Shown here one piece after another: positions 7,165 to 52,180 of a DNA stretch of 64,000 bases; the first letter of the stretch is position 1; the number at the start of each line of letters is the position of its first letter. The notes under the pieces are model-generated. The model saw nothing but the letters and a program-made list of their open reading frames with translations. It made no database searches and had not been told where the DNA came from. Source of the stretch: Octopus vulgaris. Taxonomy: Eukaryota. Made by a program: the position numbers and the translations under genes. The DNA is taken from NCBI GenBank assembly GCA_951406725.2, contig OX597818.1:64914001-64978000 (forward strand), read 5' to 3'.

Positions 7165-7281
7165 TTGAATGACGTAACCTGGATTAGTGATCAGGGTATT
7201 TAACTCGCGATGGTAAGTGCCTGATTTGTATACCCGGCGTCGCATTTTATCTTTGAGTAAGACAGTATATTTAATGATGCA

Positions 7282-7705
7282 AGGCGTTGAGCTGGCAGAA
7301 TTGTTAGCACGCTGGACGAAATACTTAGCAGTATTTCGCCTGCTGCTACCTTCTAAGTTCTAAACTCCGCCGAGGCCGACTTTGTCTTTCTTCATTTTGG
7401 GGTCGATAAAAAAAGTGTCAGTTGCGTACTAGAGTCGATCTAATGGACTGGACACCACCTCAAAAATTCCGGCATTTGTGCCTAGAGTATAGAAAAAGTG
7501 GGGAGCTGGAAGAATTTTTAGTACGCCCGACAAAATGCTTAGCAGTGATTTCTCTTACCGCTACATTCTGAGTTCGAATTCCAACAAGGTCGACTTTGCT
7601 TTTCATCATTTAGGGGTCGATAAAATAAGTTCCAGTTACGTAATAGAGTCGTACTGACCCCGTCCACAAACATTTCAGGCCTTGAGCCAATAGCAGAAAG
7701 GACTA
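7282..7705 (+). mobile_element. Two adjacent decayed copies of tRNA-derived SINE family A (Nin-domain-like core)
   Basis: Each copy has a gagctgg(c/a)agaa head and the core cgactttg..tttc.tcattt.ggggtcgataaa, as in the copies at 8111, 23461, 27454 and 44257. Confidence 0.8.
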
Positions 7706-7918: not shown

Positions 7919-8110
7919 GCGAATTGCCAATTATATTTGTACTCCTCGCCCAGAAACACACTCTCTCTTACACACACACACACATGCACAAGCTCACACA
8001 CACACACACACACATACGACGTGTTTTATTTTTTTCAGTTTCCGTCAGCAAAATCCACTCACAAGTTTTTGATCGACCCGCGGTTATAGTAGAAAATACT
8101 CAAAATGCCA

Positions 8111-8528
8111 TTAAGGCGGCGAACTGGCAGAAACGTTAGCAGGCCGGGCGAAATGCTAAGCGGTATTTCGTCTGCCGTTACGTTCTGAGTTCAAATTCTG
8201 CCGAGGGCGACTTTGCCTTTCATCCTTTAGGGGTCGATAAATAAAGTACCACTTACGCACTGGGGTCGATGTAATCGACTTAATACCTATGTCTGTCCTT
8301 GTTTGTCCCCTCTGTGTTTAGCCCCTTGTGGGTTATAAAGAAATAGGTATTTCGTCTGCCGTTACGTTCTGAGTTCAAATTCTGCCGAGGTCGACTTTGC
8401 CTTTCATCCTTTAGGGGTCGATAAATAAAGTACCACTTACGCACTGGGGTCGATGTAATCGACTTAATTCGTTTGTCTGTCCTTGTTTGTCCCCTCTATG
8501 TTTAGCCCTTTGTTGGTAATAAAGAAAT
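8111..8528 (+). mobile_element. SINE family A with an internal tandem duplication of about 184 bp, nested in an older family C SINE
   Basis: Head ggcggcgaactggcagaaacgttagc. The unit ggtatttcgtctgccgttacg...taaagaaata starts at 8162 and again at 8346. A 17-bp TSD aaatactcaaaatgcca lies at 8094-8110 and 8529-8545. Confidence 0.9.
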
Positions 8529-8701
8529 AAATACTCAAAATGCCACGCTGGTGGACCTAAGCCAAATCGGCTGAGAAGCAAAGTGCTTTACCTGTCAAAT
8601 CCTTATGGAAACATTACACTCTTTCAAAGAGACTGCACCTCGCTCTCTCTTGAGCTGTGATAAGGAACGGAGAGCAACATCCAACAGTTACATTGGATAA
8701 G

Positions 8702-18533: not shown

Positions 18534-18623
18534 TTTGTTGTTGTTGTTGTTGTTGCTGTTATTATCATTATTATTATTAATAATAATAATATTAATAATA
18601 ATAATAATAATAACAACAACAAC

Positions 18624-18721
<98 letters not shown>

Positions 18722-18906
18722 TAATAATAATAATAATAACGATAACAATAATAACATCGGAAAATACCTTAGGAATGAGAACCGGGGTTAGAAATTTCCC
18801 CAAGACACCTGATGAAGGCTGGAGAGGGTTTATCAGCCGAAATGTTGTGATAACAACAAACAAGATGAGGACAAATATCCGTCGAATGTAAATAATGTCT
18901 GTAATG

Positions 18907-21115: not shown

Positions 21116-23460
21116 CCCCGGTATATGGGGAAATGCCTATAATACTGTAACTCTCGTCAGAGGAATTCATTTAACAGGTAATCTTTGCACAAAACTGCTC
21201 GCCACTGGTCAATGCAAGGCAAAATCTGAGAGCAGGATGTGTGTTTATCATCACCGGAATCCATCTTTCACGGACACTAAGAACGTCATTTCTTGTACCC
21301 AAGTGGTACGCAATTGATTTGCTAAGGCGTTCAAAGCTCTCTGAAGCTGGAATTACAGTTGTCTTAAAATTGCTTTGAATTGTTTAATCACATCATTTTG
21401 ATTGATATGGTAGTGTATTACACGCCGAGTTCCTATATGGGGACAATATTAAGGACTTGACATGTTTTTCTATGTACATGGCATCTCCAGAGTAATTTCA
21501 TTATTTCGTCTCTCTCAGAAACGCAATCTACATTTTTGTGTGTATCTAAGCATCTACTGTTTTAGAGTTTTGTTTTTATCTCCGTTTTATGGTTGCAAAA
21601 TATCTTTCAGAAAAGGGTTTCTCTCCTGCGTTTGAGTTGTGGAAAATGGCACTTGTGCTTAATTATTAGTTTTGCAAATCTTTTTTCTAAGTTTCTGTTA
21701 TAACCAAAACAGTTTACTTGACCCACTTACGATACTTTTTGTGTTGCTGCTGCAGTTGGCACCAGAGCTGTATACTGCCTCCTGGCGTGTGCAGATCGTA
21801 TAATCTGTAACACCTTGAGGCTTTATTGCTGGTGCTCTCCTTCATGTAGATATCTTCAAGTGCATACATTCCTAAGCCCTTTTATTCAGTAGTTAAAAAT
21901 TAATAACTCGATTATGGGTCTTCTTGGTGCTAGGATGGGCAAAGCTGCAAAGTGTTTCCAATTTTCTATGGAAGTAAAGAACTTTCATGGAGACGCTTAA
22001 GGAAGACTGCGTTGTGATCGTTGCTTATATTTCTATTATCATCGTTTCCAACAGCATTTTTATGCTGATATTCTTTCCTTCTAGTCTTCTTTTCGCTGTG
22101 TATTTCTTGTCATTTGCACCTCCCTCACATGTTATTCCAATCTTGTCGCTGTTACAGTAACAACGTCTCTTCAGCTATTTCTATTAAAACCTCCAATATC
22201 CTTTGAGAGGTATGTCGGTCAATGTCATTTGTGATTCCTCGATATCGAATTTAGAGTTTCTCTTCCGATGAATTATGACTCCTTTTCTGCTCTTGCTTCA
22301 ATTTCATGCTTCCTGAATCTATGTAATAGGTTCATATATTGCGTCTCAAGGACAAAAACCAAAAGATTCGTTCTTTTTTCGCTTAACATGTTCTTAATCT
22401 ATAACAAACCAGATGTTTCTAATGCCTTTACAATTACGTTCTTCGTTTGAGCGTCCTCAGCTAATATCCATGACATTTTAATCAAAAGGTGTTTTTTTTC
22501 TGCCAGTTTTGATTACTGCCGAATATTGTGCTTTTTTTATTGTTTCCAGTTTAATAGACAAGCATCAGCTCATTCGACAAGAGATTGTTTACCTTAGAGG
22601 TAAAATACCTGGAACCTATAAGAATCTTGAACAAATAAATTCATGTACCATATCGGAAGTCCATTGTCTAATGATAATAATAATCTATCTGTCCTCCTGG
22701 TGCTACAAACTACAGTAGCATCCACCCTTACGGGTTAGCCACATTTCAGTGGCAAAAATACTTCACGATTTGTTGCAGCTACTGTTTATACCTCGCTCAG
22801 AGATTTAGTATGGCTCAATCATCTATCTATCTATCAATTTATAAATTCTTCGTATCCCTTCATGTTATTGTCATTTCACTTTACATGAGGTCAGCTTATA
22901 GAGTGCCTGTATACTATGATTGTCAATGTAACGTAACTAATCTTAAATCTATTCAGTCGTAATGCATAGGAAAGTACACTACACCATGTTATCCCCCGAG
23001 CCTTTGTGCTATTCAGTACAGATTAAATATATCTACACAATTAGCAGTGTACATGCTGTTTTTTCCAATCTCATGATCGTATAAACACCGCCAAAATCTC
23101 TTACTTGTCATTCTCCCTCTACAGATTCTCATGTTCCCTTAGGCAAATTTGTACTCACATATTTGGCTTGCTCTCTTTTTTTAATACTGGTGTAGGTATC
23201 TGTGTTGGACATACTAACAATAAAGGAAATTTCATGCTACATGAAGTTCATGACTTCAATTCTGCTATTGTAATTTTGAAACGACAGTGGACATGAAATC
23301 AGGACGTCAGATGAGGGACACTAAACCTGGTCTGGTTTCATTTGTAATACTTTTGATAAATGCCTGAGACTATTTTGAACGTATTACCTCTACAGCATCC
23401 CTTTTCTTTTAGGACTGGTCCTTTAGCGAGTTATATATCTAAAGCAACCTAAATACTACC

Positions 23461-23693
23461 TATTTCTTTACTACTCACAAGGGGCTTAACATAAAGGGGA
23501 CAAACAAGGACAGGCACACGGACGAAGTCGATTACATCGACCCCAGTGCGTAACTGGTACTTAATTTATCGACCCCGAAAGGATAAAAGGCAAAGTTCTC
23601 GGCGGAATTTGAACTCAGAACGTAACAGCAGGCGAAATGCCGCTAAGCATTTCGCCCGGTGTCCTAACGATTCTGCGAGCTCGCCGCCTAAAT
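23461..23693 (-). mobile_element. SINE family A
   Basis: Reverse complement of 8111-8345. A 12-bp TSD ctaaatactacc lies at 23449-23460 and 23694-23705. Confidence 0.9.
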
Positions 23694-25774: not shown

Positions 25775-26817
25775 GTATGTGTATATTCTATATATGTTGG
25801 TATTATTAAATATAATAGTTACAATATCGATTAAGACATTCAAGTGTTCGTGCATATAACCATAGGTAATCGGAGATTTCAAATATATACGTGTGTGTGT
25901 GCGCGCCTTTAATCATAATAATATTCCTATTTGGAGGCGCCTATGTCTATAAGCCGCCAGGAAATAGCGAGTCATCAAGCAGGGAATGAAACATACCAGA
26001 AAGTGAACGTACAATTATTAATTAAATATACAATATACAAACGAAAGCAGAGAGTTTGCTGTGACATGAAAATATGAATTCATTCAGTGTAAATAAAATA
26101 AGGACTGTAGGGTTTTTTTCTCTTTCTTTCTGTTCCATTCACTCCGTTTGTCTCTCTCTCTCTCTCTTTCCCTTAAGCTCGTTCCTCCGTGCTGTTCTCA
26201 ATCTCTCCTCTCTCCCTGATTTCTGTGTCACTTTCTGTCCCCAACAACTTTTCACATACTTACTACTGACGCGTGACCAGTGGTCCTCATGACTCCCTCA
26301 TCCCCATTTCCTTTCTTACAAAGATCCCCGTCGCGACAGCTCGTCTTTCTTTCGTTCCACACTTCGAACACGTTTCTCTGTCTCTCTGCTCTCCTCTTGG
26401 ATAACTTTCATGAATTTCCTCTTCGCGTTAACAATATCTTCGTCTCTTAACAATATCCTCGCCCAAGGCCTAATTCTGTTTATTTGTCTTATATTGAGCT
26501 TAAGTTTACATTCCTCCTTCTTCTGTTTTCGTCTTTACCCCGTGTCCATTTACTACTTGTATTCAATATTATTTCTTTTCTATATTGTATATTACATGTA
26601 TTTTTGTCATGCTTAGTCCCTTGTTCCGTTGTTCCTGGTAGCTTTTCGCCGCTGTCATCGCCAAACAGCGCAAAATTGAGGAGCCCATTGACCGATAACT
26701 GATGAGCATTTGCTGACCTTTTCTATCTGTTTCCCATTTCCTTGGGTTTATATTATACATTATATTTTTTAAGGTATATATATGCGCACATATACATAAT
26801 ATAGTTCTAAGAGGTGA

Positions 26818-27312
<495 letters not shown>

Positions 27313-27453
27313 TTTTTTTCTCTCAAGTTTTAGCTCAGAGCTGCGACCATGCTGATGCACCACCGTTTGTGGCCTTGCTGAGCAATAATAATAATACCAC
27401 CATCATCAGCATGTCCTTTACTATTGTTGTTGTTAGTAGTAATGATGGTAGTA

Positions 27454-27688
27454 AAGGTGGTGAGCTGGCAGAAATTTTAGCACGCCGGGCGATATATTTA
27501 GCGTTATTTCATCTGCCGTTACGTTCTTAGTTCAAAATCCGCCGAGGTCAACTTTTCCTTCCATCCTTTCGGGGTCGATAAATTAAGAACCAGTATCACA
27601 CTGTAGTCGACGTAATCGACTTCATCCGTTTGTCTGTCCTTGTTTGTCCCTTCTGTGTGTAGCTCCTTGTGGGCAGTAACGAAATAAA
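27454..27688 (+). mobile_element. SINE family A
   Basis: ggtggtgagctggcagaa head, ccatcctttcggggtcgataaa core and tttgtccc...gtgggcagtaacgaaata tail. Confidence 0.85.
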
Positions 27689-27701
27689 TAATGGTGATAG
27701 C

Positions 27702-27854: not shown

Positions 27855-28800
27855 CAAACGGGTTTGAATTTATCAAAACCATTTCTGTCTCTGACTTCTC
27901 TCTCGATTTCATTTGTGTTGGTCAGTTTGTAGAATGCGAATATTATAGGCAGTTTCTTACTGCATGTTACCACGTGTTTGCTTAATGGGATTTGACGGAC
28001 ATAACGGTGCGTAACATGCGTCGGTACACAGGTAAACACTCCAATGATTCATACCCAGTCTGACCAACGTATATCTCTTCACATTTCGGGCACCTGAGGT
28101 AAATTATATTTCTACTTTTGCAGTTCATATTTGCATTTGCAAATATTCTTCTGATTTTCGTGCTAATATATTGATCGGCATGCATGCACTGACATTATAA
28201 CATCGATTATCATTGAATTTCAATACGATGAATGATTCTACATTGTTGCTTAGGTCAAATTTTGCCTTTGTTAATAATTATTTCAAGTTCTTCGACCGTC
28301 TTTTACTGAGAAACATAGCTCGCTCCGTGATTATATCATTTTATTCATTACTTTGAGCAATGATCAGCAGGTTTGCTTTGGCAGCGCTAAAGATATTTTG
28401 ATGACACAGATTGTGTGTCATTAAAATTGGTATGACCGATTCGTGGTTACCTCTTTCTTGGGATACCTTAATTTGTTTTATGAGTATTTCTATTGCACGC
28501 TGTATACCATTTCCTATGAGTAAAGATGGACGTTTTTGTTTGAGTAGAAATTCTTTGAGTTCTGTTAAGCGTTTGCCTCTGGTATTCACATCTTCAGCAA
28601 TGCTACATATTTTTTCCGGTTAGACAATATGGGATAATGTATTTTTTCAGACTTCGATTGCACGATATAAATTTCAGGAATTGATACATGCCTGTGTGAT
28701 TTAATATATATCAGTGTTGATGGTGTTGTTTCTTTTAATTACCATTATGACTAGAAATGGTAATCTGAAAACTACTCATCTCCTTTGAAAATTGGAGATT
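27855..28800 (-). pseudogene. Decayed Penelope-like retroelement (RT C-terminal region, linker and GIY-YIG endonuclease)
   Basis: Minus frames give LPFLVIMVIKRNNTINTDIY, KICSIAEDVNTRGKRLTELKEFLLKQKRPSLLI, NMNCKSRNIIYLRCPKCEEIYVGQTG and RQIPLSKHV...KFKP. Several stops and frameshifts are present. Confidence 0.9.
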
Positions 28801-32703: not shown

Positions 32704-35700
32704 TCAGAATTTGGGCACTATGGCCCACTCAAGTAGAGAGTTATTGTTTACAGAGACATATCCGGGTGTAGGGGGTTTATCCGGGATTTCTTGAAGGAAT
32801 CTGTCCAAAGACTTCTTGAACCCTATAGGGTCAGTTTCTGTTTTAATGTGTTTTGGTGTAATGTTAAAGAGAGCGGGGCCAATTGAGGTGAAATAATTGT
32901 GCCGTATTGTTGTTATGAGATGAGAGTGCGATTTTTGTTTTGGGCGGATGGCACGGGGCCCAAGCCTTGGATGTACCTTAAAGGTGATGCCAACATCATT
33001 TGGGCAATGCTGATGGAATATTTTCCACATCATGCAGATGATGTAGCGCTCACGACGACGTTGGAGAGAATAGAGTTTTAGCTTTTCTAGTCGACCCCAA
33101 TAGTCGAGGCCTGTCATGCCATCTATCTTTTTTGTGATTGCCCTTTGAGGTGCTTCGACTTTTTTGATACCTTGTATTGTGTGGGGAGACCACAGTGGAC
33201 AACAGTATTCAAGGTGGGGTCGGGCAAAAGTGGAGAAGAGAAGGATAATGGTGTGGATATCTCTCGACTGGAAAGTTCTGAGAATCCAGGAACACATTCT
33301 GCGGGCCATGTCAACTTTGGTGTTTATATGAGTGGCCCAGCTTACGTTGTTGTCCACAATTACTCCCAAGTCTCTGATGTTGTTGGACGCCGCGAGAGTT
33401 TCACCTGAAGGAAGGGAGTATGGGAGTTTCAGGGCATCCTCTTTTCCAAAGTGGATTAGCTCAAATTTATCCTCGTTCAGCAGCATATTGTTTTTTTCTG
33501 CCCATTGGATAACAGCCAGTAGATCTGACTGAAGGCATGTCCGGTCACTCGCCTCATTTATGACCTTCTGTAGCTTGGAGTCATCTGCAAAGATTTTTAT
33601 GTTGCTGTGCTTGATGATGTCATTAATGTCATTAATGTAAATGATGAAAAGAAGTGGGCCCAGCACAGTGCCTTGCGGAACGCCACTACTGACTTTGGCT
33701 GGGCTTGATTTTACCCCTTCAACTACAACATGTTGAGATCTGTCTGTCAGGAAACACTTAATCCATTTCAGTAACTTTCCAGAGACACCAATGTTGGATA
33801 GTTTTTTCAATAGGATCTTGTGATCGACCCTGTCGAAGGCCTTACTGAAATCAAGGTAGATGACATCGGTGTTGGAGCCCTCTCCCAAAGCTCTCAAAAT
33901 GTCCTCAAAGTGATGCAGGAGCTGCGTTAGGCAGTCCCTTCCATTACGGAACCCATGTTGGTTGGAGATCAGCCGTCTGTTGCTTTCCAGAAATTGGGTT
34001 ATTTGAGATCTCACCACCCTCTCAAATACCTTGATGATATGAGAGGTGAGTGAGATCGGACGGTAATTCACTGCAAGGGACTTGTTTCCCTTTTTGAAAA
34101 CTGGGACAACAGACTGGGACAGAAGGTTTTTTGGAATATAGCCAGCATCCAGTGAGTTTCTCCACAGATTAGCAAGGGGAGATGCAAGTTGGTGTCGACA
34201 CACCTTCAGGACACAAGCAGGGAACCTATCGGGGCCTACTGCTGAATTGTGTTTTATTTCGTTTATCGCCGCTAAGACATCAGGGGCACTAAACGTTATG
34301 TCCGATATAGTGTGTTGGGGGTTGACATCATTGATACAGCCCAGATCGGCCATATCAGGATTGCTGAAAACAGAGCAGTATTGTTTCTGCAGTATCTCGG
34401 CCATGGATTTGGCATTATCTTGGAGAGTGCCAGTTTCGTCAATTAGAGGGCCTACAGTGGAGACAGTGACCCTGCGTTTCCTCGCAAATGAAAAGAACAC
34501 TTTGGGGTTGAGTTTGATTTTTTCAATGGCCCACTTCTCCTCAGCTGATCTTTGGTTATTGATGAGGGACTTCATGCATTGTTGGAGGTTATATTTTTTG
34601 GATTCAAGCAGTGCGATAGCCGTCGAATGTGTGTGTTGCTGTTGGCAGTACTTTAGTTTGTTAATTTTTTTGTTTGTTCTTTTTATTTTTCTGATAATGG
34701 TTTTTCTGTTTTGGGGGATTCTGCACTTTTTGTTCACAGGTCTTGGTGGGGAGTGTTTTGCACATATGTCTGTGACGGTGTCTACAAAGATCTGCCAAGA
34801 TGTTTTATGGTTGGTGGAGATGTGTGTATGTGTAAAGGACCAGTCAACATTTGATAGCTCGTTCCTGATTGCATCCCAGTTGGCTTTATGGAGATCCATG
34901 TTGTCAAATGGGTGGGCTGGAGGAAGGTCACTAGGATTAGCTTTCGGCTGGTGGAATTTCATGTTACAGAGAACCATGTCATGGTCTGAAAGAAGGGTTT
35001 TTTCCACTGTAACGTTATGTATAGTGTTAGTGTGGTTACTAAACACTAGGTCCAAAATGTTCTGATGTCTTGTTGGTGCAAGGACAAGTTGGGACAAGAA
35101 AAACTCATTCGTAAAGTCGAAAAGTGACTCTGCTGCTTCTTTGTCAGCGGTTGAGGCGGGAGTGCTTGGTTTCAAACAGTTTGTAGTCCAGTCAACACAG
35201 GGTAGATTGAAGTCTCCCATCATGAGTATGTTGCTAGAATGGCACTGTTGAATAAAGCACTTAATGCTGTTGAGGCATTCTTTAAAGCACAGTATGGGTG
35301 TTTGGGGCGGCCTATAGAGCCCAATTACTGTCAGATCATTGGCTTTGTTGTGCACGGTGACTGATTCACAGTAGCCGTTGGAGAATATACTATTTCCATC
35401 TGCCGTAAATGAATCATGCAGGAAAATGGCAGTTCCACCCTTCCTCCTGCCGATACGATCCGCGCGGATGGTTGTGAAATTCTTCACTCTCACTTCGGCT
35501 TCCAAGTGGGAGTTGTCAAGGTGGGTCTCAGTGAGAATGAAGAAAGGGATGTGGTGTGAATGGTTACCAACCCAGTCTTCAATGAATTGGACCTTCCATT
35601 TTTGTGCATTGATGGAAGGGCTGACACCTTGTGCATTGAGTAGGAATGTGGAGGTTAGTGTAGTGGCTGGTTTTGACTGTTGCAGGGGGCTTGGATTTTT

Positions 35701-35943
35701 TGTGTGTGTTAGTGGCAGCAATGTGGGGAATTGGTGCACTGGGGTAATAGCATAGGATGGTGTTGAGTGATGGCTAGAATGTTTTTGTGTATCTCTTTTG
35801 CCATGTTCAACATGGCTAAAAAGAATTTTCCTGCTTAGGGAGCAGTTTTTGGCTGGAGGTGTGGTTGCACTGTTGGATAGGGTTGTAGTTTCCACTTTTG
35901 TTGTTGTTGTTTTTGTGTCTTCCTGAAAAGACTGGACCAGCAT
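32704..35943 (-). CDS. LINE ORF2: apurinic-like endonuclease plus reverse transcriptase (1079 aa)
   Basis: APE motifs LLNAQG, ILTETHL, GGTAIF, GLYRPP, MGDFN, LDLVF and SDH. RT motifs NYRPISLTS, QHGFR, YLDFSKAFDRV, GVPQGTVLGPLLF, FADD and RDLGV. CR1-like C-terminus SLQRRRER. Confidence 0.97.
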   Translation of the reverse strand: MLVQSFQEDTKTTTTKVETTTLSNSATTPPAKNCSLSRKILFSHVEHGKRDTQKHSSHHSTPSYAITPVHQFPTLLPLTHTKNPSPLQQSKPATTLTSTFLLNAQGVSPSINAQKWKVQFIEDWVGNHSHHIPFFILTETHLDNSHLEAEVRVKNFTTIRADRIGRRKGGTAIFLHDSFTADGNSIFSNGYCESVTVHNKANDLTVIGLYRPPQTPILCFKECLNSIKCFIQQCHSSNILMMGDFNLPCVDWTTNCLKPSTPASTADKEAAESLFDFTNEFFLSQLVLAPTRHQNILDLVFSNHTNTIHNVTVEKTLLSDHDMVLCNMKFHQPKANPSDLPPAHPFDNMDLHKANWDAIRNELSNVDWSFTHTHISTNHKTSWQIFVDTVTDICAKHSPPRPVNKKCRIPQNRKTIIRKIKRTNKKINKLKYCQQQHTHSTAIALLESKKYNLQQCMKSLINNQRSAEEKWAIEKIKLNPKVFFSFARKRRVTVSTVGPLIDETGTLQDNAKSMAEILQKQYCSVFSNPDMADLGCINDVNPQHTISDITFSAPDVLAAINEIKHNSAVGPDRFPACVLKVCRHQLASPLANLWRNSLDAGYIPKNLLSQSVVPVFKKGNKSLAVNYRPISLTSHIIKVFERVVRSQITQFLESNRRLISNQHGFRNGRDCLTQLLHHFEDILRALGEGSNTDVIYLDFSKAFDRVDHKILLKKLSNIGVSGKLLKWIKCFLTDRSQHVVVEGVKSSPAKVSSGVPQGTVLGPLLFIIYINDINDIIKHSNIKIFADDSKLQKVINEASDRTCLQSDLLAVIQWAEKNNMLLNEDKFELIHFGKEDALKLPYSLPSGETLAASNNIRDLGVIVDNNVSWATHINTKVDMARRMCSWILRTFQSRDIHTIILLFSTFARPHLEYCCPLWSPHTIQGIKKVEAPQRAITKKIDGMTGLDYWGRLEKLKLYSLQRRRERYIICMMWKIFHQHCPNDVGITFKVHPRLGPRAIRPKQKSHSHLITTIRHNYFTSIGPALFNITPKHIKTETDPIGFKKSLDRFLQEIPDKPPTPGYVSVNNNSLLEWAIVPKF

Positions 35944-36928
35944 TACTGCAGCATGGTGTGTTTCTATTTTTATTGTTATTCAGGTTTGTGTGTTGGCTTG
36001 AGGCCCCGTTTCTGTTTGTGCGTCGGGTCCCTGGAAGATGAGTGAAGGGACAGTCACTCAGTAGACATGTTCTCTCACGTTGGGAATACCGGCAGATTTT
36101 GGGACTCCGAGTTGTGTGTGTTTTGAATTTCGATTTACTATTTGGTGGTGTTGATGTTATTGTGGGATGCGTGCTTTGGCCTTGGCCAGTAGTGCGTCTA
36201 GTGCCGGGTAGATGCGTGAAGATGCAGTCACTATTTGTGCAGAGTCTCTGGCGCAGTGAATAGCGGCATATTTGGGGATTTCTTGTTTGTGCCGTGGGGG
36301 GTGCATTCTGCTTCCTATGTTTCTTTAAGTTTTTGTTACTGCAGTAGTATTGAGGTGGTGATGTGGGGGAAGAGGGCAGTGGTTTCTTATTTGGTTTTCT
36401 GTTGGTATTTTTGGTGATAGAAGACGATGGTGGCAGCGGTGGTGATGATGATGATGATAATTGTGGTGGTTGCTGTGAGAGCGGTGAAAAGATACTGGCA
36501 TTTAGTGAATCGTCTAGTAAGCTAGAGTTGAGGAGTGGCTGTTGTTGTTCTTGTTGCTGTGGCTGTTGTTGTTGTGCCTGACCGATGTCAGGGTCAGCCA
36601 TTGTGTTGGGAACCAGGAGTGGCTCATTCTGTTGTTGTTGTTGTGGCTGCTGATTTTCTAGCTGTTGTTGTTCTTGAACTGTGAAAATATGTAGAAGCTT
36701 TTCATAATGGCCTCTTATCAGTTTGAAAGATACTTCGATATGTTTCAACTTGCTACGAATCTGTTTGACGGATCGTGTGTTGACCACTTGTGATGTTTTT
36801 TCGGCAATCTCATTCAAACACAAGACATTTAGATTTTCTGTTTGGGAAAGAGAGAGCCATGTGTTTATTAAAACATCAATTTCGTTATCAGACCAATTTC
36901 GTCTGTTGCAGGCCTGCAAGTTAGTCAT
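35816..36928 (-). CDS. LINE ORF1 (370 aa): Myb/SANT-like N-terminus, Q/P/S-rich linker, two C-x8-C-x4-C-x3-H zinc fingers
   Basis: Lies directly upstream of ORF2. Contains RRNWSDNEIDVLINTW...RSVKQIRSKLK and the duplicated units ICRYSLRQRLCTNSDCIFTHLPGTRR and ICRYSQRERTCLLSDCPFTHLPGTRR. Confidence 0.88.
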   Translation of the reverse strand: MTNLQACNRRNWSDNEIDVLINTWLSLSQTENLNVLCLNEIAEKTSQVVNTRSVKQIRSKLKHIEVSFKLIRGHYEKLLHIFTVQEQQQLENQQPQQQQQNEPLLVPNTMADPDIGQAQQQQPQQQEQQQPLLNSSLLDDSLNASIFSPLSQQPPQLSSSSSPPLPPSSSITKNTNRKPNKKPLPSSPTSPPQYYCSNKNLKKHRKQNAPPTAQTRNPQICRYSLRQRLCTNSDCIFTHLPGTRRTTGQGQSTHPTITSTPPNSKSKFKTHTTRSPKICRYSQRERTCLLSDCPFTHLPGTRRTNRNGASSQHTNLNNNKNRNTPCCSNAGPVFSGRHKNNNNKSGNYNPIQQCNHTSSQKLLPKQENSF

Positions 36929-37262
36929 GTTTGTTTTTCTTTTGTTTGTTTTCCTTTTGATTTTTGAAAATATATATATTCTTTCTTGGGAGTTAAAGAA
37001 GTGTATATATATATAAATGTTCTCTCTTAAGGGTGTGAGTTTTTGATTATTTGGTTGTTTGAGGATATTAAAAGAAAAACAGGTGTATATAACAATTTGT
37101 AGTTAAATGAAAACGTACTTACGGGTTTGTAGGCAAACACGTGGTTACAAATATATATATATTTAAGGTCAGTTAGTTTTGAAGCTGTGTAGCTTGCTAC
37201 TGACTCGGGAGAGAAACAAATAGACGTCCGTCCAGTTCAACAGTTAATCCAAATATCCAAAT

Positions 37263-37317
<55 letters not shown>

Positions 37318-37337
37318 GTTAATCCAAATATCCAAAT

Positions 37338-37372
<35 letters not shown>

Positions 37373-37517
37373 GTCATCTCCGTTTTCGTTCTGTTGATTT
37401 TTTCGTCTTCTTGTGATGTCCTGTACGTATATATATATTTATATATGCATGTATATATACATGTAGATGTCGGTACGTACATATATGTTTGTATGTATGC
37501 ATATATTTTATTTATTA

Positions 37518-37577
<60 letters not shown>

Positions 37578-37843
37578 ATGCACGCTCTATAACCGTAACA
37601 GTACAGGGCTCAGTAAATTAATTTGATATATAAAAGACCACAATAAGCTGTTTAATTTAGAATGGTTGATACTCTCAATCTCGATACCTTATGACAAAGG
37701 CAAGGAATTCTGTCTTCTCTGTAGTTCTGAAATATCTGTCATTATTTTTCTAAAAATCCCCTAGTAAACACGGTTATAGAGCGAGCATACCGATGTAAAC
37801 ATTGGCAAAACACACCTTTAGTTCATATAAGTAATCTCTATCA

Positions 37844-39016
37844 TCTCTTATTATAAAAGGCAGATTTTATCGGCCTCCCTTTGTCAGTTATAGAAATCTA
37901 CAATATAGGATTTCTTCAATTACAATTTACCTAGCATTTTTAAGAGTAGAATGCATCGGGTTTTGCCAGGTCCAGTTTTTAAAATTTAAACTCCAATTAA
38001 GCAAAATTTACAGAAAACTCACATTCTGGTGTGTATGTCAAGTGCTTTTCTTAGTCTGGTTTACAGCACACGCAAACGCACACACACAGTGTGCAACGAA
38101 TAAAGTGAAACTAGATGTAATATTTGTTTCTGTCTATCACGCTGATAGATACATGAGTAAAATGTATGGCAAGCTAACAGATAAGAGTGACTGAAAATGT
38201 TCTTGGAAGAGAGTAAATAGCGACAGAGTGATTTGAGGAAGACTAAACTGAAAGTATGAAACAGTGTTTATGTATAAACAGACGACACTTATATAAACCC
38301 TTTCGTTACCAAACCGCCCGAATTTACCTATTCATATTTAAATAAGAATATCAGAGTAAATCTCTTTAGTACATTCGTGAAAACACGTATTATACTTCGT
38401 AAACACTTCAAATACAGTTTTGTACAAAAATCGAAGTGTAATTTTAATTCCGTGAATTATGGGAGATTTTTTTCCGAAATTTGTTCCTATTGTGTTTTCA
38501 AAATTTGTAATTCTGACAAAAAATGGATACGAATTTCATTATATCAAGCAGCGAGTCAGAATTCGAAGGACTTTCTACTGAAGACCTTCATAAATCTAAC
38601 TCTATGACTGAAAAAAAAGCATATTTATATAAGAGTGAAGTTGTTTGTCTGTCTCCTACGATTTAGATTCGTAACTACTCCCACATTTTGCGGTGCAGTT
38701 TAACCAAAAGCGGGTATCTTATAGTCGTGATTCATATCGAGACCTTCTGGGTATTAGCGCGCGTCTACGATGAGTCTACGATTAAAAAAAATTTACCATC
38801 ATATTTTTCCATTTTAATGCATTTTTTTCGCTTTTATATAAGGGAAGTAACTCTCTAAAAATATCTACGATGTGTCAACGATTTAAAAAAGAAATTTACC
38901 TTAATTTTTTTTCAATTTTTAATGCATTTTTTGCTACTTTTTGGCTATAACTGTCTAAAAATGCTTATATAGTTATTTCCCTTACAAACCCGAGCAACGC
39001 CGGGCGATACTGCTAG
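37844..39016 (+). mobile_element. Composite non-autonomous Helitron
   Basis: Starts a|TCtcttattataaaaggcag and ends cccgagcaacgccgggcgatactgCTAG|t. A second 5'-like head at about 38621 is followed by the body shared with the 17761 and 53160 copies. Confidence 0.75.
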
Positions 39017-44093: not shown

Positions 44094-44256
44094 GTGTGTG
44101 ATTGCCTTCGTGTATGTATGTTTGCGTATGTGTGTGTCTGTCTGTGTGACTGTGTGTATGTGTGTGCTTGGGTGTATTTATACCTGTAGGAATGTACGTA
44201 AGTTATTGTTCAGTTTATTTCAAGATTTCTTGCCAATAGAGAGACAGTAGATTTCT

Positions 44257-44490
44257 TATTTCTTTACTGCCTATAAGGGGCTAAACACAGAGGGAACAAA
44301 CAAGGACAAGCAAAGAGATTAAGTCGATTATATCGACCCCAGAACGTAACTAGTACTTATTTAATCGACTCCGAAAGGATGAAAGGCAAAGTCGACCTCG
44401 GTGGAATTTGAACTCAGAACGTAAATACAGACGAAATACCTCTAAGCATCTCACCCGACGTCCTGACGTTTCTGCCAGCTCTCCACCTTC
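44257..44490 (-). mobile_element. SINE family A
   Basis: Reverse complement of the family consensus. Diverged TSD acagtagatttct / acagtatgtttct. Confidence 0.85.
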
Positions 44491-51512: not shown

Positions 51513-51790
51513 CACTACGCCATATGCCCGTGGGCATATGGCGTAGTGGGTAAGAGTGCGGGCTACTAACACCAAGATTCCGAGTTCGATTCCAGGCAGT
51601 GACCATATTAATAAGAATAAGAATAATAATAATAATAACAACAACAACAACAACATCTAAAAATACCTTAAAAATGAGAACTCAGGTTCAAAATTTACCC
51701 GTGACACTTGAAGGCTGGAGAGTATATCAGCCGAAACTTTGTTAACAACAAGATGAGGACAAATATCTATCCAATGTAAATAATATAAAT
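51513..51790 (+). mobile_element. Composite element: 5' inverted segment, tRNA-like head, (AAT)n, decayed hammerhead module
   Basis: 17-bp palindrome at 51513-51548, A-box TGGCGTAGTGG at 51539-51549 and B-box GTTCGATTCC at 51584-51593. The module aaatacctta...ggctggagagtatatcagccgaaac...gatgaggacaaatatc follows. Confidence 0.75.
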
Positions 51791-51796
51791 AATGAA

Positions 51797-52180
51797 CATC
51801 ATAGTGTTCGAGGTGATCACTAGTGATGCAGATATTATCCCTCCATTCATCCTGCCACATGGCCTCAGAGTCAACACGGAGTCCTACTTCAAGTTCCTGG
51901 TGCTGGTACTGCTGCTCTGGATCAAAAGGATGGCTGCTGGAAGACCCTATGTCTGGCAGGAATCTGCACCATACCACTCAAACAGGAAACCGCTGACATG
52001 GCTGTCTGTCAATTACTACGACCACATCACCCCTAAAACTGGTCAACAAACAAATCAGTCTGCAACCCCCTTGATTATAAATTGTGGTGTGCTGGTGAAT
52101 GAGTGACCAACAAAAGTCCTTGTAACAGCAAATATAAACTCAAGGCAAGGATTATGGCAGCGTACACCAACTTAAACAAG
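51797..52180 (+). pseudogene. Decayed Tc1/mariner-superfamily transposase fragment (catalytic domain)
   Basis: IIVFEVITSDADIIPPFILPHGLRVNTESY...RPYVWQ-ESAPYH...WLSVN, then a frameshifted (WPPNSPD)CNPLDY.LWC and LKARIMAA. Confidence 0.85.

Follow-up and report, generated by a model that had tools for sequence, protein, structure and literature searches.

The repeat at 51532–51799 on the plus strand of the window (the whole 64,000-nucleotide stretch of Octopus vulgaris DNA analyzed here) consists of a tRNA-like head, an (AAT)n spacer, and a module containing a hammerhead motif. This unit is almost certainly the pseudo-LTR of an autonomous retrotransposon of the Penelope/Poseidon type. The parent is a 2.9-kb coding element with the layout head-spacer-module-tail-ORF-head-spacer-module, in which the ORF encodes a reverse transcriptase (RT) with a C-terminal GIY-YIG endonuclease (EN). 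A sequence-only reading of the same DNA had proposed a stand-alone SINE resembling the schistosome Sm-alpha repeats. That proposal does not survive, since the unit is the pseudo-LTR and ORF start of a Penelope-like element (PLE). Also absent from that reading were the coding element to which the whole unit belongs and an inverted 17-nt piece of the head at 51513–51529. Other parts of it held: head, trinucleotide spacer, and module lie in one order both in the focal copy and at about 26803–27310 on the minus strand, the spacers put at about 50 and 250 bp measure 50 and 250 bp, and a module reported to stand alone after (AAT)n near 18752 was found at 18755–18899 (+). The features of the three copies are as follows.

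51513–51531, minus strand: inverted arm of the focal copy, made of the 17-nt inverted 5′ end of the head and a 2-nt centre (from the sequence and its self-match)
51532–51604, plus strand: focal tRNA-like head, equivalent to the 3′ UTR and the 5′ part of the pseudo-LTR; predicted Pol III promoter
51539–51549, plus strand: focal A box (motif match)
51584–51593, plus strand: focal B box (motif match), 45 nt from the start of the A box
51605–51654, plus strand: focal spacer, (AAT/AAC)n, 50 bp
51655–51799, plus strand: focal module, the start of the PLE ORF including the hammerhead region; ATG at 51674–51676
51703–51744, plus strand: focal hammerhead, a decayed minimal type I (from alignment and fold)
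27230–27310, minus strand: head of the second copy, with changes in the A box and in the B box
26980–27229, minus strand: spacer of the second copy, (AAT/ACT/AAC)n, 250 bp
26803–26979, minus strand: module and decayed tail of the second copy, with CUGAUGA at 26915–26921 and a 3-nt deletion at the cleavage site
18578–18899, plus strand: third copy, 5′-truncated within the spacer; (AAT)n at 18578–18754, module at 18755–18899

Both focal boxes match the A- and B-box consensus sequences, and an A-to-B distance of 45 nt is that of tRNA genes, which bears out the A/B-box head described earlier. ARAGORN called no tRNA genes in the window, the head included, and an Rfam scan of the window and two better copies gave only chance microRNA-type matches, with no tRNA or hammerhead family. 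The core CUGAUGA, previously ascribed to the modules generally, is present in the second copy (26915–26921, −) and in the third (18809–18815, +, with two weakening changes); from the focal copy it is gone, a 3-nt deletion having left TTGA. The cleavage triplet and the 3′ strand of stem I are damaged there as well, and stem II, which is intact, is the only stem that folds. The focal ribozyme is dead, as is the copy that contains it, which is of the short form. Its arm stops without the ~33-nt tail described below and no target duplication was seen around it. The palindromic junction at 51513–51531 is typical of two-arm insertions in the family and recurs at many loci. Judging from its letters, a (GTT/ATT)n tract at about 18535–18577 may be an inverted spacer arm of the third copy.

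The window holds other repeats. Another abundant tRNA-type SINE-like repeat occurs at 7281–7651, 8110–8533 (with a 184-bp tandem duplication at 8162–8529), 23457–23693, 27449–27690, and 44256–44489; one of its copies lies just upstream of the second head. A decayed fragment of a Neptune-type PLE occupies 28263–28763 (−). Overlapping long stop-free minus-strand frames of 428 and 1,091 aa at about 34900–38200, with a plus-strand frame of 307 aa near 34140, were also seen; the long frames are probably a host exon or a mobile element.

We searched the genome (G000; 2.8 Gb in 227 contigs) with exact 21-mers. Words from the hammerhead and the head occurred 7,194 and 4,006 times, a word from 45–65 nt upstream of the head 1,036 times, and a word from the ORF start 75 times. 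Since the reversed controls all gave 0, the repeat is not a product of chance. Unanchored copies kept these words in 56/155 (hammerhead), 23/102 (head), and 8/24 (upstream of head) cases, and dividing counts by retention gives estimates of ~20,000 for module arms, ~17,000 for heads, and ~3,000 for arms extending as far as the ORF end. Most copies are short, with about five short head-bearing arms for each ORF-linked arm. Forty arbitrary 10-kb stretches contained 4 insertions. The copies are decayed, with a median divergence of 6.7% from the column majority (55 pieces). The copy samples used below were anchored on the element's own words and partly overlap.

The parent was found with a pattern for an RT motif that we take to be the Poseidon-type motif. 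It returned 117 matches, nearly all from one family among the matches listed. Head and/or module lay 0.5–1.4 kb downstream on the same strand at 22 of 30 RT-motif loci, and both were present at 14. Two full-length copies (L211 and L212) carry a module at each end of a ~2.3-kb body, and in long copies the head begins about 30 nt past the stop codon of the GIY-YIG domain (motif read by eye). A 5′ module was present in 48/70 ORF-start arms, indicating that the pseudo-LTR derives from a partial tandem. Assembled contigs from sequencing runs also contain the element and bridge the ORF end and the head in two organisms (A and B); run X18 yielded no such match. The ORF matched RVT_1 (E 4e-9), and its homologues carry PF00078, PF28514, and PF26215. 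Natural translations aligned with homologues have a CCHH motif in the endonuclease and an RT-EN linker without a zinc finger, judged against the available part of PMC8557442. In a tree that included no named Poseidon reference and in which some rows were badly cut, the ORF groups away from Neptune-type ORFs.

The module itself is coding. An open frame runs from the module ATG through the hammerhead and tail into the RT-EN ORF in L336 (93 aa) and L206, and in L336 it is open without splicing; some Penelope/Poseidon members have a spliceosomal intron in the pseudo-LTR. A database protein, P0006, begins with the same hammerhead-encoded N-terminal peptide (46% identity, E 4e-21), and because it shares this peptide the module is an ancestral PLE sequence, as in the anole element PAc. 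Searches for DNA of relatives gave none in viral contigs and one chance-level match in prokaryote genomes, and the head was absent from the short flanks available around 8 metagenome relatives (38–49% identity).

Other candidate partners were rejected. A GIY-YIG search (148 matches listed, 30 loci and 20 longer stretches viewed) led almost entirely to Neptune-type families, which have other pseudo-LTRs and lack the module, and a weak match at L141 (E 0.02) was dismissed as chance. One Neptune-type family (L131 406–4090, on C16) is young: at many loci its 781-aa frame for RT plus GIY-YIG is intact, and a second frame of 359 aa lies apart from it, upstream. Several other Neptune-type families carry hammerhead-like motifs of their own. 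A GC-rich Neptune-type remnant at L121 6400–7900 includes a motif like a minimal hammerhead, and the strand opposite is open for 1,146 aa in a frame that by eye resembles a LINE endonuclease/RT protein. Within the family of the focal element, five loci (L331, L343, L345, L346, and L355) have the 3′ module joined to the ORF start with about 2 kb deleted, which we read as frequent internal template jumps.

How copies insert was examined in 95 clusters from the sampled loci, after seven duplicate views were dropped. Arms on both strands were present in 48, and these were oriented head to head in 47; the one exception (L179) was flagged convergent, is by eye divergent with an extra tandem fragment, and was counted as the 1/48. 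The 3′ ends fall into two groups, at module positions of about 141–157 and 178–182, which is about 50–70 nt or about 90 nt past the hammerhead cut site. In the 43 clusters with two long arms, the ~33-nt tail that separates these groups was on exactly one arm in 37, on neither in 4, and on both in 2 (p 1.6e-6). Direct repeats of at least 9 bp flanked 18/43 clusters, compared with 2.5% of 3,000 shuffled pairs; insertions often have target duplications of 7–15 bp. Of about 21 junctions inspected by eye, just 2 show pairing along the whole palindrome, and the others connect partners of whatever length through 2–4 nt of microhomology. In one two-arm insertion (L038 1340–2000), set within a Neptune-type remnant, each arm has the tail and the flanking DNA is inverted. 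An inverted, 5′-truncated arm and a 30–40 bp tail at one end are PLE hallmarks in the available text of PMC8557442, and PAc cuts and extends both strands in vitro, with reverse transcription beginning at two points that bracket the tail (PMC11167929). The octopus insertion structures match fig. 2 of PMC8557442, as far as that source was available, and the findings of PMC11167929.

The sequence-only reading had also proposed a hammerhead, and in the family this is a genuine minimal type, by alignment and fold, even though the focal ribozyme is dead. Minimal hammerheads of the PLE type are weak cleavers that act as dimers or with protein. The fold of an intact natural copy is that of a minimal hammerhead of type I, with a 5-bp stem I and a 6-bp stem II around the core, and the copy has an inserted base after A9, a G10.1–C11.1 pair, and a palindromic stem III; these are all four features given in the accessible part of PMC4209133. 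At the family level, though not in the focal copy, we found the core CUGANGA, GAAA, and NUH together with stems I and II, and the hammerhead was intact in 48/223 arms of a sample partly anchored on the core. Across 54 columns around it, common non-CpG substitutions occur only at N7 and in loop II. Since the reading frame also tolerates these changes, constraint on the ribozyme and on coding cannot be separated. The copies come from few masters, and only the P0006 peptide hints at a different stem II. PAc insertion did not need hammerhead cleavage (PMC11167929). The family hammerhead probably needs to dimerize, or to be assisted by protein, in order to cleave, and is likely dispensable for the formation of copy ends.

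Taking the evidence as a whole, we think it probable that this is a PLE in which Pol III starts at the pseudo-LTR head, insertion is primed at two sites, and short and long forms differ in the module used for priming. In such a scheme, TFIIIC and Pol III would start an RNA about 13 nt ahead of the A box. The PLE protein would nick both DNA strands and prime reverse transcription at two sites flanking the tail, as PAc does in vitro, and the two cDNAs would be joined by 2–4 nt of microhomology or via the head palindrome. The short form would arise when synthesis is primed in the first (5′) module and runs off the RNA 5′ end, and the long form, usually truncated, when it is primed in the 3′ module.

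The distribution of 5′ ends argues for a start at the head. In 30 head arms, the 5′ end lay at −7 to +3 of the tRNA-like +1 in 19, clearly upstream in 3, inside the head in 6, and was ambiguous in 2; the tRNA-like head likely marks the start of transcription, in line with the earlier suggestion of a self-transcribing element. Thirty copies chosen because they pass the head (about four of them duplicate views) had ends spread from about −50 to about −1,500. Only 5 of 70 ORF-start arms reach the 5′ head, ending at −8, −2, +4, +13, and +32, and none of the 70 runs on continuously into an upstream ORF. In two of them (L354 and L382), a jump connects to ORF-end sequence lying upstream, a possible sign of tandem read-through that began farther upstream. 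On the simplest reading, Pol III would start at the head to make the short RNA, and perhaps the full-length RNA as well. We regard such a start as a fairly likely source of the short copies. As to its origin, the best of 30 genomic tRNAs (Arg) aligns only loosely with the head, in a set that is without Ile, Asn, and Ser tRNAs and from which most isotypes are missing.

The same ends might instead be ordinary 5′ truncations of a PLE transcribed by Pol II, with a hairpin stopping the RT or annealing the cDNAs and the A and B boxes a relic of a captured tRNA or SINE. The head does overlap a hairpin of about −9 kcal/mol at exactly the boundary where ends pile up, and the hairpin could itself bias the junctions; perfect inverted junctions also occur, including that of the focal copy. 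However, equal or stronger hairpins near −340 in L236 and L252 (−11.8 to −14.9 kcal/mol) have no such pile-up, the ends map to the head hairpin's loop and 5′ side rather than to its 3′ base, and pairing through the full palindrome is as rare as the junction counts indicate. Truncation would agree with the alleles common to long and short copies and with the heavy 5′ truncation known for PLEs in the portion of PMC8557442 available. Against a Pol III start, the only mapped PLE promoter, that of D. virilis Penelope, is described in the available text of PMC2377424 as internal, TATA-less, LINE-like, and accompanied by an intron. What truncation leaves unexplained is a lack of TTTT. Sense strands of the copies contain 19 T4 runs in 62.8 kb, compared with 132 in shuffles, while A4 runs number 859 compared with 746. 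Because the copies are not independent, we retested T4 on the column majority, which has 0 on the sense strand; a codon simulation gave P(0) of 0.04–0.055, a borderline value from what is effectively one master sequence. For comparison, T4 runs number 9 and 8 in Neptune ORFs from the octopus genome and 2–12 in each of the 8 metagenome relatives; a Dong-like ORF (L290) is likewise T4-poor (0.41/kb). All told, we consider Pol II transcription with truncation unlikely.

A bolder version of the Pol III reading can be offered only tentatively, and we hold it to be possible but doubtful: the whole 2.9-kb RNA would be made by Pol III from the tRNA-derived pseudo-LTR promoter and translated without a cap, and the same promoter would produce a SINE-like family copied by the enzymes of Penelope, not those of LINEs. 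If true, this would explain the avoidance of TTTT in the ORF.

A further possibility would make the short copies a SINE in their own right, one that propagates itself with borrowed PLE enzymes and excises its own RNA with the hammerhead. They share with SINE2 elements the A and B boxes at tRNA spacing and a discrete 5′ end at the head; a separate non-autonomous family with a LINE-type A-rich or simple-repeat 3′ tail was not found. The five-to-one excess of short head-bearing arms, the predicted internal promoter kept in each of them, the intact hammerheads in the anchored sample, and the precedent of Sm-alpha, which the available part of PMC6765202 gives as combining Pol III with a hammerhead, would all suit such a SINE. 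Its alleles do not. Long and short copies share them: T/A at N7 stands at 38/6 in long and 78/19 in short head-bearing copies, G/A in the head at 14/13 and 59/32, and a fourth scored column is invariant, so that no short-only allele exists at the three polymorphic sites scored. Moreover, copies end at the two tail boundaries and not at the ribozyme cut, the common variants appear to preserve the ORF frame (one D/E change and one silent), and the RNA of PAc must include ORF sequence past the RT start (PMC11167929), a stretch missing from the short copies. An independent SINE is thus improbable. On the evidence of the shared alleles, we see no separate SINE lineage; the short copies are SINE-like, in that they have a tRNA-like promoter start and no coding capacity, yet they are not a separate family.

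That head and module are separate elements inserting independently into (AAT)n arrays is practically impossible: the headless module at 18755 and the headless clusters (10/30 of those anchored on the module) are 5′ truncations, consecutive head matches on one contig (C1) have the module downstream on the same strand in 23/30 cases and on the opposite strand in 0/30, head and module occupy the same place in ORF-bearing copies, and neither part occurs at any of 45 arbitrary long AAT arrays. We rejected it on the ORF-linked co-location and the fixed strand. The earlier reading had held that independent or randomly oriented occurrence would speak against a joint element; neither was seen, and head and module have been co-mobilized as one unit of fixed order and orientation. 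In the same 30 copies, an inverted piece lies upstream of the head in 22.

The microsatellite was said to be carried and spread by the repeat. It is indeed carried in each copy: trinucleotide-rich spacers make up 100 of the 108, and spacer length ranges from 11 to 608 bp, with a median of 38 bp. As a source of long (AAT)n arrays, however, the element is minor, because none of 45 pure (AAT)8+ runs in an arbitrary 400 kb lies near a copy; in the window, 7 of 11 do. At two loci (L009 and L003), (AAT)n tracts on the module side abut the ends of other elements, presumably of the Dong/R4 kind, which indicates that other elements also feed or target such arrays.

Set against known systems, the octopus element resembles Penelope/Poseidon PLEs such as D. 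virilis Penelope and anole PAc in its single ORF for RT plus a GIY-YIG endonuclease at the C terminus, with CCHH and no linker zinc finger; in its pseudo-LTRs, inverted 5′-truncated arm, and optional 30–40 bp tail at one end; and in a hammerhead at the junction of pseudo-LTR and ORF that overlaps the ORF start. Unlike them, it combines an (AAT)n tract with a tRNA-like A/B box in its pseudo-LTR, has a sharp start at the head in most copies, and is without TTTT on the sense strand. A predicted tRNA-like A/B box within a PLE pseudo-LTR is new; no PLE with a tRNA-derived promoter was found in the literature searched, and since the sequences in Repbase, Dfam, and SINEBase lay outside the comparison, the family may already be catalogued. 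Ohshima and Okada reportedly described the tRNA-derived high-copy Octopus SINEs OK, OR1, and OR2 in 1994, and the octopus unit, likened to these by class and not by sequence, may be one of them. OR2 is mentioned only as a CORE SINE in the available text of PMC4758252. An annotation of octopus repeats lists Penelope-like elements and many unclassified SINE families, with no mention of a hammerhead in the portion available (PMC13282606).

The ribozyme itself does not differ from the metazoan PLE minimal type I hammerheads of PMC4209133, as far as that source was available: a stem I of 5 bp, a stem II of 5–6 bp, an extra nucleotide after A9, G10.1–C11.1, a palindromic stem III, and mostly solo occurrence with some opposite-strand pairs. 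Its predicted cut triplet is GUU. Like the schistosome repeats Sm-alpha and Sj-alpha, as described in the accessible parts of PMC2770079 and PMC6765202, the octopus unit is a short high-copy repeat with a tRNA-related, Pol III-type head followed by a hammerhead. The analogy goes no further: in those sources Sm-alpha is tandem and its hammerhead cuts multimeric transcripts into units, whereas octopus copies are not tandem monomers; they occur singly or as inverted arms, extend past the cut, and belong to a coding PLE. No head-to-tail monomer arrays were met, a same-strand module lying upstream of the head in 0/30 copies.

The TRIMp3 elements Cassandra, Helenus, and Ajax likewise have a Pol III-type promoter derived from a small RNA in their terminal repeat, but they are non-coding LTR elements in the available text of PMC10886601, whereas the octopus repeat is part of a PLE that is autonomous and of non-LTR type. 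Short hammerhead pieces related to PLE pseudo-LTRs are also found among non-LTR retrozymes and non-autonomous derivatives of PLEs (PMC7229834; bioRxiv 10.64898/2026.07.22.740005; MRC1 in PMC8557442, each as far as available). Retrozymes, however, form head-to-tail arrays, and the accessible parts of PMC7229834 and bioRxiv 10.64898/2026.07.22.740005 describe no tRNA head. An array of this other kind does occur in the octopus: at L091 2740–4780 and about 2300–2730 (C1, near 20.00 Mb), near-identical tandem units of ~359 bp each contain a type I hammerhead, with an inverted copy ahead and (TA)n at the end. This array is young, and is either a non-LTR retrozyme or a PLE of the non-autonomous kind.

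The thousands of short two-arm insertions amount to a genome-scale test of a mechanism, two nicks with two starts of reverse transcription, that was proposed from a single in vitro system. If the Pol III reading is true, a tRNA promoter has been captured by an element of the Penelope type, which turns out SINE-like copies of its own terminus, part of what is annotated as 'SINE' in such genomes would be PLE output, and a Pol III-driven start would be an unusual mode of transcription for such an element. If the whole element were transcribed in this way, its RNA would be a natural protein-coding Pol III transcript, and the SINE-like family made from its end would suggest an origin for repeats of the Sm-alpha type.
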